From Campylobacteraceae bacterium (GTDB lineage: Bacteria > Campylobacterota > Campylobacteria > Campylobacterales > Sulfurovaceae): DNA of 24,620 bases. The DNA is taken from assembly GCA_027068975.1 (NCBI GenBank), contig JALXFN010000024.1, forward strand, positions 1 to 24,620, given 5' to 3'. Of this stretch, positions 20,611-22,846 are shown in pieces; the stretch's first letter is position 1, and each line of letters starts with the position of its first letter. A program made the translations under genes and the position numbers. The notes under the pieces were generated by a model. The model had not been told where the DNA came from, made no database searches, and saw nothing but the letters and a program-made list of their open reading frames with translations.

Positions 20611-20943
20611 CTAAAAATCAAAATCATTTTTACTTAAATCACGTTTTGAAATAGTATAGCCTTGCATCACTTCATAAACTAAAACATCAGCGTCAACATT
20701 TGCTACTGATAATATATGAAGGATTTTGTCTAAACGTTCAGTAGAGTCTAGTAAAATGGAAACATTAATTTTTGTTATGAAGTCAACAGTATATTGTGCT
20801 CCACGATATCCCTCTTTATGTATATGTCCTTGACCATACTCTTTAACCTCAAATGTAGAAATTTTCTTAATGCCAATTTCTCTCAATACCTCTTTAACTT
20901 CGTCGATTTTATGTTCAAATATTAATAGTTCTAGCTTAATCAT
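20611..20943 (-). CDS. P-II (GlnB/GlnK-like) family protein, divergent: the T-loop Tyr is conserved but the B-loop Gly-rich motif is missing
   Basis: Aligns by eye with E. coli GlnB: MIKLELLIF..IDEVKEVLREIGIKKISTFEVKEYGQGHIHKEGYRGAQYTVDFITKINVSILL against [65 protein letters not shown]. There is no RTGxxGDGKIF motif. It is transcribed divergently from rtcB2. Confidence 0.55.
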   Translation of the reverse strand: MIKLELLIFEHKIDEVKEVLREIGIKKISTFEVKEYGQGHIHKEGYRGAQYTVDFITKINVSILLDSTERLDKILHILSVANVDADVLVYEVMQGYTISKRDLSKNDFDF

Positions 20944-21178
20944 ATAATTTTCTTTTTTGTTAAATTTTCTATTTTTAATTATAGCAACAATTAACTTTTA
21001 ATTTAAATGTTTAATAAAATCTTGATGATGGGATAAATTTCTCATTGGACAAAATATGACAAAAAATTACACTACCATTTAAACACTAAAACCAAAGGAA
21101 TAAAAATGAGACAAATATTAAAAGAAAATGACTTAAAAATGCAAAAACAAACAATTATAAAAACCATAGGAAATATAG

Positions 21179-22249
21179 ATGGACAAGTTAACGCTTATAG
21201 CTTCACAAAGGAACTGGATAGACAGTAGAAGTGTAGAGACATTAGAAAATATAACAAAATTTAGAGGCGTAAAAAAGGTGGTTGGTCTACCTGACCTTAG
21301 TGTAGGTAGAGTGCCAAATGGTATGGCTATTTTGGTGGAAGATAGAATCTATCCACATCTTATAGGGGGTGATATTGGCTGTGGAATGAGCCTTTTTCAA
21401 AGCCCCATAAAAAAGAGTAGGTTAAAGGTAGATAAGTTTGAGAAACGGCTTAGAAAAATAGATGATTTAGACGCAGTATCGTTAGGGCAAAAAGCCTCTA
21501 TGGGCTACAACTTAGGAACCATAGGTAAAGGAAACCATTTTGCTGAGTTCCATTTGGTTAATGAGGTAAAAAATAGAGAGTTATTTGATGCCTATTCATT
21601 AGATGAAACATCACTCTATAGCTTAATTCATAGTGGTTCACGTGCTTTTGGACAGATAGTGTTTGATGCTGTGGCAGGTCAATATGAACCTAGCCAAGGC
21701 TTAGATGTAAAGAGTAAAGAGGCACAAACGTATTTAGAAAAGCACTTTAAAGCTTTGGCTTATGCTACTCAAAGTAGAGAAGAGATTGCTAGAAAACTAC
21801 TTAAAACCATAGGTCTAAGAGATGAGTTTACAAAAGTAAGTGATACTGCACACAATAGTATTACCAAAACGCTTGATGGGTGGTTACACCGAAAAGGAGC
21901 AACTCCTACCAACAAAGGTTTGGTCATTATTGCAGGGAGTCGTGGGAGTTTGAGCTATTTGGTTCAACCAACAGCAAACACCCAAAAGTCAAACAACTCT
22001 TTGGCTCATGGAGCAGGAAGAAAGTGGGAACGAAGCTCAGCCGAAGCGAAACTAAGAAACAAGTACTCTAAAAAAGATTTAGAACGTACAAGCATAGGCT
22101 CACGCGTTCTATGTGTTGATAGTAAATTGCTTTACGAAGAAGCACCACAGGCTTACAAAAATATAGACATCGTTATAGATGATTTGGTTCAAGAGGGGTT
22201 AGCAACAGTTGTGGCTACTTTCCGTCCTATTTTAACATACAAGGAGTAG
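21179..22249 (+). CDS. rtcB2: RtcB-family RNA ligase, a short paralog of the RtcB2 type paired with PrfH
   Basis: RtcB signatures are present: GLPDLSVGRVPNG (metal-binding PDxHxG-like), GTIGKGNHFAEFH (GNHF motif), DTAHNSITKT (HN motif) and LAHGAGRK (His-GMP site region). 356 aa. AGGAAA RBS present. Followed 3 nt later by prfH. Confidence 0.75.
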   Translation: MDKLTLIASQRNWIDSRSVETLENITKFRGVKKVVGLPDLSVGRVPNGMAILVEDRIYPHLIGGDIGCGMSLFQSPIKKSRLKVDKFEKRLRKIDDLDAVSLGQKASMGYNLGTIGKGNHFAEFHLVNEVKNRELFDAYSLDETSLYSLIHSGSRAFGQIVFDAVAGQYEPSQGLDVKSKEAQTYLEKHFKALAYATQSREEIARKLLKTIGLRDEFTKVSDTAHNSITKTLDGWLHRKGATPTNKGLVIIAGSRGSLSYLVQPTANTQKSNNSLAHGAGRKWERSSAEAKLRNKYSKKDLERTSIGSRVLCVDSKLLYEEAPQAYKNIDIVIDDLVQEGLATVVATFRPILTYKE

Positions 22250-22252
22250 CCA

Positions 22253-22846
22253 ATGTTGGTACATATTAGCAGTGGCAGTGGAGTAGATGAGGTCTGTAGG
22301 GCTGTTTGGCATTTTAAAAATTGGCTAGAGAAAAACTATGAGTTTGAAGTAATAGACGAGCAGTTAGGAAGTTGTAGAAGATGTATAAAATCACTCTTAA
22401 TAGAGAGTAGTGATAAGAGACTATTAGAGCTACACGGCACACATCAATGGAGAGCCACAAGCCCATTTAGACCCAAACATAAGCGTAAAAATTGGTACTT
22501 TACCCTGCGATGTTATGGCTCAAATAACATTCATAAAATAGATGAAAAACAGGTAGTTTACCAAACGATGAGAAGCCCAAAAAAAGGTGGACAGCATGTG
22601 AATACTACATCATCAGGAGTGAGAGCCATCTACAAACCTTTGGGTATAGAAGCCGTTAGTTTCGACCATCGAAGCCAATACAGAAACAAGCAAGTAGCCT
22701 TGTTTCGCTTAATGGAAAAGTTAGAAACACTGGTAATGGAAAAAGAGTCAAATGAGACCCAAAAACGTTGGAAAGAGGGAAAAGAGATTCAGCGTGGAGA
22801 TGCTGTGTTGGTTTTTGAGGGGGAGGGGTTTGTAAAGTTAGATTGA
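22253..22846 (+). CDS. prfH: Peptide chain release factor homolog PrfH (RF-H)
   Basis: GGQ peptidyl-tRNA hydrolase motif KKGGQHVNTTSSGVRAIYKP. Length ~197 aa, with no full RF1/RF2 decoding domains. AAGGAG RBS present. Translationally coupled to rtcB2. Confidence 0.75.
   Translation: MLVHISSGSGVDEVCRAVWHFKNWLEKNYEFEVIDEQLGSCRRCIKSLLIESSDKRLLELHGTHQWRATSPFRPKHKRKNWYFTLRCYGSNNIHKIDEKQVVYQTMRSPKKGGQHVNTTSSGVRAIYKPLGIEAVSFDHRSQYRNKQVALFRLMEKLETLVMEKESNETQKRWKEGKEIQRGDAVLVFEGEGFVKLD

Follow-up and report, generated by a model that had tools for sequence, protein, structure and literature searches.

Genes and features of the locus

We analysed a 24,620-nucleotide (nt) stretch of DNA, here called the window, from the Campylobacteraceae bacterium of GenBank assembly GCA_027068975.1 (Sulfurovaceae; contig JALXFN010000024.1, positions 1 to 24,620). 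The window contains the RNA ligase gene rtcB2 and the release-factor homologue gene prfH and, transcribed divergently from them, a gene for a small P-II-like protein. In an initial annotation, these genes had been read as a ribosome-rescue pair with a P-II-like signal protein coupled to it. In the analysis reported here, the P-II-like gene appears instead as a bystander within what is probably an RNA-repair gene cluster under the control of a WYL-domain regulator. The features of the locus are listed in Table 1.

Table 1. Features of the rtcB2-prfH locus. Positions are those of the window unless a locus is named; aa, amino acids; ORF, open reading frame; HTH, helix-turn-helix.
Feature	Position	Strand	Size	Description and basis
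WYL regulator gene	17956-18879	-	307 aa	DriD-like HTH-WYL-WCX transcription regulator; Pfam HTH_DeoR, WYL, WCX; PADLOC WYL
Extra palindrome	18894-18908	n/a		GGAC-N7-GTCC, GGACAACTTGTGTCC; in the 43-nt gap from SPFH stop to WYL start
SPFH gene	18923-20050	-	375 aa	SPFH/Band_7 protein; Pfam Band_7, 95 bits
Structured RNA	~20190-20455 (ends approximate)	-		Two permuted tRNA-mimic modules; Rfam YrlA match, covariation
RNA 3' hairpin	20195-20211	-		
RNA module B	20245-20300	-		
RNA module A	20311-20363	-		
RNA 5' hairpin	20421-20438	-		
Promoter of the RNA/SPFH/WYL unit	20452-20483	-		Operator GGACAGTATACGTCC (20469-20483), 11 nt, TATAAT (20452-20457)
P-II-like gene	20611-20943	-	110 aa	P-II paralogue without B-loop, single-gene unit; Pfam P-II, PDB matches, AlphaFold2
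Promoter of the P-II-like gene	20978-21007	-		Sigma-70 type; TTTAAA, 18 nt, TG-TATAAT
Promoter of rtcB2-prfH	21047-21078	+		Operator GGACAAAATATGACA (21047-21061), 11 nt, TACCAT (21073-21078)
Leader ORF	21106-21228	+	40 codons	Own Shine-Dalgarno; overlaps the rtcB2 start by 50 nt, frame +2
rtcB2	21179-22249	+	356 aa	PrfH-coupled RNA ligase; NCBIfam models, catalytic motifs
prfH	22253-22846	+	197 aa	Tail-less release-factor homologue of the E. coli type; RF-1 domain, GGQ, PDB matches
tRNA-Ser(GCU) with promoter	22948-23090	-		tRNA 22948-23041; operator GGACTAAATACGTCC (23076-23090), 11 nt, TATAAT (23059-23064)
LMWPc-like small protein gene	L024 4567-4899; L019 4999-5319; L098 4833-5156	-		

Identity of the rtcB2-prfH pair

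The positions of rtcB2, prfH and the P-II-like gene are exactly those given initially, and the identity and coupling of the pair were confirmed by reading the sequence: the TAG stop of rtcB2 is followed after a 3-nt gap (CCA) by the ATG of prfH, with AAGGAG 6 nt upstream of this ATG. RtcB2 scores above both NCBIfam cut-offs for PrfH-coupled RtcB (NF007153, 421.9 against 407; TIGR03073, 376.8 against 271.8). It had been described as a short RtcB paralogue with its catalytic landmarks in place, and aligned with P. horikoshii RtcB it indeed keeps the metal-binding/His-GMP motifs GGDIGCG, GKGNHF, HSGSR and AHGAGR, all four of which are invariant across the RtcB2 alignment (A1). Its length is normal for the RtcB2 clade, which ranges from 353 to 361 aa.

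The RF-1 domain of PrfH was recognized by Pfam with 69 bits and contains the motif KKGGQHVN, and the top PDB matches are the PrfH structures 9mor and 7sa4. The protein falls narrowly below the cut-off of TIGR03072 (IPR017509; 156.3 against 166.65), which is still by far its best-scoring family. Release-factor domain 1 is absent, as PrfH aligns with RF2 residues ~150-310 only. The basic C-terminal helix that forms the tail of the PrfH-CT subfamily is absent as well, the alignment reaching only residue 205 of the 231 that make up C. gingivalis PrfH; therefore the protein belongs to the E. coli type and not to the PrfH-CT subfamily of Flavobacteriia (PMC12829566).

PrfH frees the peptide from ribosomes stalled by a decoding-centre cut in the 16S rRNA, and RtcB2 then re-ligates the rRNA (PMC9304027, PMC9223846, PMC12829566). 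The rtcB2-prfH pair of the window is a standard, known ribosome rescue/repair operon. It resembles the RtcB2-PrfH systems of E. coli ATCC25922 and CFT073 (PMC9304027, PMC9223846) in gene order, translational coupling, RtcB motifs and GGQ, and its PrfH resembles E. coli PrfH in having neither domain 1 nor a C-terminal tail. In Campylobacterota, a conserved operator precedes rtcB2-prfH and a leader ORF runs across the rtcB2 start, neither of which is described for the E. coli system in the literature covered. The base composition gave no sign of a recent acquisition of rtcB2-prfH, and PADLOC returned no defence-system match for RtcB2, PrfH or the P-II-like protein.

For comparison, 80 rtcB2 loci with 6-kb flanks on each side were collected, one genome per species, spanning Campylobacterota, Bacillota, Alpha-, Gamma- and Deltaproteobacteria, Cyanobacteria-related lineages, Planctomycetota and others. 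Of these loci, 70 contain prfH, which adjoins rtcB2 on the same strand in 66. In several Alphaproteobacteria and relatives (L033, L037, L047, L056, L059 and L086), a gene of ~245-282 aa ends 1-2 codons inside rtcB2, which suggests a third, translationally coupled gene upstream of rtcB2 in these lineages. Separately, an array of 13 tRNA genes (L057, 393-2784, plus strand) was observed ~3 kb upstream of rtcB2-prfH in a Methyloligellaceae genome.

The P-II-like gene and its neighbourhood

The P-II (GlnB-like) fold, the retained T-loop tyrosine and the loss of the Gly-rich B-loop that had been attributed to the divergently encoded protein were all upheld. The protein passes the Pfam P-II model (PF00543) with 30.8 bits against a gathering score of 25, GlnB and GlnK are its best PDB sequence matches (E 1e-13 to 1e-12), and its AlphaFold2 model (predicted local distance difference test score, pLDDT, 77) matches GlnB, GlnK and GlnZ with probability 1.0 and template modelling scores (TM-scores) of 0.6-0.7. 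In the numbering of E. coli GlnB, the whole P-II-like clade keeps H42, E44, Y46, R47, Y51 and K58; the B-loop TGKIGDGKIF is replaced throughout the clade by LSVANIDAxVLVY, neither R38 nor Q39 is retained, and helix 2 falls six residues short of that of GlnB. The protein is like GlnB and GlnK in fold, T-loop length, Tyr51 and Lys58, with clear homology over its N-terminal 65 residues, and unlike them in having no Gly-rich B-loop, R38 or Q39, the elements of ATP/2-oxoglutarate binding. Its scores lie far below the NCBIfam equivalog cut-offs for GlnB/GlnK (53.7 against 181 and 52.2 against 202). The clade is very small, with 19 clusters at 90% identity; only five representatives exceeded 110 bits in a library of 1.84 billion, after which the scores dropped to ~75 bits, where the matches are the N-terminal halves of ordinary P-II proteins. 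Judged by its sequence and its predicted fold, a ferredoxin-like beta-alpha-beta fold that includes a T-loop, the 110-aa protein is a genuine GlnB-derived P-II paralogue belonging to a rare clade. Directly downstream of the 117-aa P-II-like genes of two lineages, a G+C-rich, structured-looking sequence is kept (L005, 8355-8490; L008, 6355-6490; plus strand).

The 80 rtcB2 loci were searched for P-II genes with three queries, namely a profile of the P-II-like clade, the window protein and E. coli GlnB, with PrfH as the positive control. None of the three queries found a P-II or P-II-like gene within 6 kb of rtcB2 in any of the 80 loci, and no P-II-like gene was present in two further Sulfurovum-type contigs (L097 and L098) whose RtcB2 is 72-75% identical. 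The contexts of the P-II-like gene itself were readable in ten lineages, the contigs of P0002, P0004 and P0006 being left out. The gene is divergent from rtcB2 in two of the ten, the window species (four contigs) and the P0005 lineage (L015; 70% identical), and in the other eight it adjoins purD (two lineages), YajQ/MoxR, HrpB, a GDPD gene, the methionyl-tRNA synthetase gene, CCP_MauG or an unrelated gene. The L015 contig ends within the N-terminus of rtcB2 and shows the same operator, leader ORF and RtcB2 N-terminus as the window. Since the intergenic regions of L015 and the window are homologous, the two adjacencies represent one inherited arrangement. Neither the window, as had been stated before, nor any of the ten contexts contains an amtB, glnA or ntr gene.

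The P-II-like gene has a promoter of its own (Table 1). A TGnTATAAT(ATAT) extended -10 box ~30 nt upstream of its ATG was seen in most of the contexts aligned, being weaker or partial in L008 and L011. With an adjacency that is not conserved and a separate promoter, the P-II-like gene is therefore an autonomous unit. The proposed coupling of the P-II-like protein to rtcB2-prfH, for which a neighbourhood survey had been set beforehand as the deciding test, was not borne out: no conserved P-II-like neighbour exists at the rtcB2 loci searched, eight of the ten lineages have the gene elsewhere, and the gene is accompanied by its own promoter in most contexts. Likewise, the region between the two divergent genes is 235 bp long as described and does contain an operator, but its description as a shared control region does not hold, as the operator is found at rtcB2 irrespective of the P-II-like gene. 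In the best reading, the P-II-like gene is a bystander with a constitutive-looking promoter that appears to lie beside the operon by chance in this lineage. Annotation of the repair module should leave it out, and the paralogue could at most be a lineage-specific add-on.

A conserved operator in front of rtcB2 and neighbouring units

Alignment of the regions upstream of rtcB2 in the Campylobacterota contigs revealed the conserved motif GGACAAAATAYGNC(A/C). In all 16 promoters examined, the operator, GGAC-N7-GTC(C/A), is 15 bp long, lies exactly 11 nt upstream of a TAnnnT -10 box and occupies the usual -35 position. Twelve promoter regions of Campylobacterota contigs carry it in front of rtcB2-prfH, each with the 11-nt spacing and most with TACCAT as the -10 box. 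The tandem GACAAAA repeats at 21048-21067 (GACAAAA-N3-GACAAAA), which had been proposed as a common operator of the two divergent genes, are present and represent the local form of this conserved operator, but they are not linked to the P-II-like gene.

The palindromic form GGAC-N7-GTCC has three matches in the window, compared with 0.16 expected by chance. Besides rtcB2-prfH, the operator precedes, in this fully palindromic form, the RNA/SPFH/WYL unit, where it falls in a seemingly empty 560-bp gap downstream of the P-II-like gene, and the tRNA-Ser(GCU) gene. The operator, and not the P-II-like gene, ties the neighbourhood together, preceding three units of the window. The tRNA-Ser(GCU) gene is convergent with prfH and has its operator in front of a perfect TATAAT, and the tRNA-Arg gene at 5224-5300 has no operator. 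The extra palindrome between the SPFH and WYL genes is too near the ATG for the same type of promoter and is possibly an autoregulatory site.

Outside the window, the same promoter architecture was found in L024 and L184, in gaps homologous to that of the window. In a Sulfurovum metagenome-assembled genome (L018, 2589-3147, plus strand), the operator with its 11-nt spacing and an AAGGAG-type Shine-Dalgarno precedes a canonical rtcB, which lies just downstream of rtcB2-prfH and a 245-aa ORF. A metagenome scan for the operator with CGGACNNNATACGTCCA gave, among the matches listed, mostly chance occurrences, L184 being the only relevant one.

Other readings of the motif were rejected. TGGACA as a -35 hexamer would give a 21-nt spacer in most loci, and by our own reading of the sequence both the spacing and the -12/-10 bases misfit sigma-54 and extracytoplasmic function (ECF) sigma promoters.

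A candidate WYL regulator

The WYL gene of the window lies downstream of an operator-bearing promoter. Its orthologues (57-72% identical, E 1e-114 to 1e-146) are located in the operon divergent from rtcB2 in L019, L020, L022, L023 and L024, and these five are all the GTDB Campylobacterota loci that have the operator together with enough upstream sequence. WYL orthologues and the operator thus co-occur in six loci. The genes between the WYL gene and rtcB2 are small and variable; those of the window are the SPFH gene, that of the RNA and the P-II-like gene. In three Campylobacterota loci (Table 1), the operon divergent from rtcB2 also encodes a small protein (~107-111 aa) of the low-molecular-weight phosphatase (LMWPc) type, which matches the family in its N-terminal part only.

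The domain architecture of the window regulator is that of DriD of Caulobacter crescentus and of the WYL regulators PafBC, CapW and BrxR. A profile built from the WYL orthologues matches the Caulobacter DriD structures 8tp8, 7u02 and 9pfq at E ~1e-4, a weak similarity that is seen with the profile only. The DriD site, ATACGAC-N7-GTCGTAT, overlaps the -35 region, and its distance to the -10 box is identical across all DriD promoters (PMC13004042). The operator of the window is like this site in its GAC-N7-GTC core, its location over the -35 region and its fixed distance to the -10 box. From the same core and the like placement we infer that the WYL protein binds the GGAC-N7-GTC(C/A) operator, for which a role as activator or as repressor would be alike possible. 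The putative targets in the window differ from those of DriD and the other WYL regulators, being RNA and ribosome repair rather than the DNA-damage response or phage defence.

A tRNA-mimic RNA that accompanies the SPFH gene

Behind the operator of the RNA/SPFH/WYL unit lies a predicted structured RNA with two tRNA-mimic modules. The arms of a module follow the order T-arm, closed acceptor-like hairpin, D-arm, which is the permuted topology of the YrlA tRNA-like domain. In a permissive scan, the best Rfam family was YrlA (RF02553; 39 bits, where the gathering score is 69; E 4e-7), and the match in the window is limited to positions 17-92 of the model, the tRNA-like domain, with the Ro-binding part unmatched. 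At 20279-20375 on the minus strand, the Rfam tRNA model gave a borderline match (29.5 bits; gathering score, 29), whereas ARAGORN called no tRNA in the RNA region.

Homologues of this RNA occur behind the same operator and in the same position with one module in L024 and three modules in L184, and all three RNAs share the 5' hairpin and a 3' hairpin with a GCUUA loop. Among the six modules of the three loci, pairing holds in 92% of the cells and compensatory changes have occurred in 9 of 13 pairs, a result reached by none of 500 shuffles, and registers slid by 1-3 columns pair at only 27-57%. Apart from these modules, a covariance model (R1) picks up nothing but an independent YrlA in L039 and false positives from tandem tRNAs. 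In six other Campylobacterota rtcB2 loci, no YrlA or tRNA-like match was obtained by the Rfam scan and none by model R1.

The RNA accompanies the SPFH gene in three of three cases, the SPFH orthologues following the same RNA in L024 and L184. As it was not found in the other Campylobacterota rtcB2 loci, the RNA goes with the SPFH gene and not with rtcB2-prfH as such. The SPFH orthologue of L184 (1425-2993, plus strand; 522 aa), whose RNA is the one with three modules, has a duplicated N-terminal domain (~140 aa).

Related arrangements were found in more distant loci. In L066 (Pseudoalteromonas) an SPFH homologue lies directly upstream of a canonical rtcB, followed by rtcA, the CCA-adding enzyme and RlaP, beside rtcB2-prfH; in L040 (Bacillota) an SPFH homologue again lies directly upstream of a canonical rtcB; and L039 and L055 have YrlA-like RNAs immediately upstream of rtcB and rtcA, beside rtcB2-prfH. 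These neighbours show that rtcB2-prfH tends to cluster with RNA-repair modules, and the window is the Campylobacterota version of such a cluster, without rtcA.

The arrangement resembles the Salmonella rsr-yrlBA-rtcBA operon under RtcR (PMC7790460, PMC4201824) in combining an RNA ligase gene, a YrlA-type RNA and a dedicated regulator with a ligand domain. It differs in that the regulator of the window has the HTH-WYL-WCX architecture and is not a CARF/sigma-54 activator, in that the window contains no Ro60 or RtcA gene and its RNA is paired with an SPFH gene, and in that the RNA comprises one to three modules in tandem and falls short of the gathering score of Rfam YrlA.

A leader ORF overlapping the rtcB2 start

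Of 12 Campylobacterota loci, 11 have a leader ORF of 36-44 codons in frame +2, which is also seen in L015; at the remaining locus, L021, the contig is cut 96 nt upstream. The ORF extends from 20-25 codons before rtcB2 to 12-19 codons into it, typically with an AAGGAG-type Shine-Dalgarno. No such ORF exists in frame +1 at the Campylobacterota rtcB2 loci, and the leader ORF is absent from the rtcB2 loci compared outside the Campylobacterota clade. It was also predicted by gene callers. Translational control of rtcB2 is a reasonable guess for its function.

Interpretation of the cluster

Taken together, the locus is probably a WYL-controlled RNA-repair gene cluster in which the P-II-like gene is a bystander. 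In the mechanism that we propose, a dimer of the DriD-like HTH-WYL-WCX regulator would bind the operator, and its WYL domain would take up a nucleic-acid damage signal in the form of single-stranded DNA or RNA fragments. The signal-bound regulator would then turn the repair genes on, in parallel with DriD at its own sites and in functional analogy to RtcR at rtcBA. For rtcB2, the leader ORF probably brings in translation as a further level of control, and the YrlA-like RNA together with the SPFH protein may serve as accessory RNA-repair components.

Several observations weigh against this reading. As to the regulator, L097 and L098 carry the operator with no WYL gene within 6-9 kb, although one may be located elsewhere in the genome, and an operator centred near -31 could equally suit a repressor. 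As to the P-II-like gene, its adjacency to rtcB2 survived divergence to 70% protein identity and it sits between two operator-bearing promoters, so that it may have a lineage-specific role. As to the RNA, the family is based on three loci, all of which score below the YrlA gathering score of 69 (39, 42.5 and 26 bits); the same-species contigs L001-L004 are identical in the RNA region and thus have no comparative power; no Ro60 (Rsr, TROVE-domain) protein is encoded among the window ORFs; and minimum-free-energy folding gives the region no significant gain in stability over shuffled sequences (z = -1.6), for which reason the support for the RNA comes from covariation instead.

The contigs with the motif and no nearby WYL gene also favour the alternative that the operator is bound by some other regulator, or is a repressor site or a lineage-specific promoter element, with the WYL gene merely a frequent neighbour; a site overlapping the -35 region is typical for repressors, and the motif is found even at a housekeeping gene, tRNA-Ser. 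However, the half-site core, the 7-nt spacing and the fixed distance to the -10 box are the DriD pattern, the WYL orthologues co-occur with the motif at 57-72% identity, the tRNA-Arg gene of the same window lacks it, and the sigma-54 and ECF-sigma readings misfit in spacing and bases, as judged by ourselves. We regard this alternative as unlikely.

More doubtful still is a role of the P-II-like protein as a signal input specific to this lineage, for example for energy or a metabolite, by which it would act on RtcB2/PrfH or on their expression through the shared intergenic region. The divergent adjacency kept in two lineages with only 70% identical P-II-like proteins and the location of the gene inside the RNA-repair cluster agree with such a role, and the T-loop is strongly conserved in the clade, which suggests a protein target. 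But the searches of the 80 loci and the two further contigs found no P-II gene, eight of the ten lineages with readable contexts have it in unrelated surroundings, the two adjacent cases with their homologous intergenic region count as one event, a promoter of its own precedes the gene in the contexts examined, and the operator stands at rtcB2 with or without it.

A decayed tandem tRNA array, that is, pseudogenes, as the origin of the tRNA-like region at 20240-20400 is very improbable: false YrlA hits are known to arise from tandem tRNAs (PMC4201824) and the Rfam tRNA model is borderline there, but ARAGORN calls no tRNA, the linker from a D-arm to the next T-arm is too short for an anticodon arm, six modules of three diverged loci preserve the T-arm, closed hairpin, D-arm order alongside compensatory changes, and a conserved operator/promoter lies upstream with conserved 5' and 3' hairpins flanking the modules.

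Beyond the window, the preferred reading of a WYL-controlled repair cluster would extend to a regulon. In Campylobacterota living at vents, RNA damage may be met by a regulon that answers to a WYL regulator of the DriD type and not to the CARF regulator RtcR. In it, the operator would drive rtcB2-prfH, with a leader ORF that could sense translation, as well as canonical rtcB, tRNA-Ser and a Ro60-less, multi-module RNA coupled to an SPFH protein like those encoded next to rtcB elsewhere. We advance this wider picture tentatively, as plausible but short of probable.

In the literature covered, with the survey of Burroughs and Aravind 2016 (Nucleic Acids Res 44:8525) outside this check, no shared DriD-type operator, WYL regulator, YrlA-like RNA/SPFH pair or leader ORF was reported for rtcB2-prfH; the accessory genes given by Burroughs and Aravind 2019 are those of tetratricopeptide repeat (TPR), Pol-beta nucleotidyltransferase and zinc-finger proteins. 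The regulation of rtcB2-prfH has not been described in this literature, and the operator, the candidate WYL regulator and the leader ORF provide three testable handles on it. The function of bacterial Y-like RNAs is a question to which the RNA of the window and its homologues are relevant, a YrlA-like type that lacks a Ro60 gene in its vicinity, varies in its module count and keeps SPFH as its partner. If the proposed control is true, the role of WYL proteins would widen from the sensing of single-stranded DNA in DNA damage and phage defence to the repair of ribosomes and RNA.

Neighbouring genes

A cluster of stress-protein genes lies near the repair genes at 11788-14065 on the minus strand, where three tandem HSP20 genes are followed by an M48 peptidase gene, between the genes for arginyl-tRNA synthetase and a Crp-family regulator.

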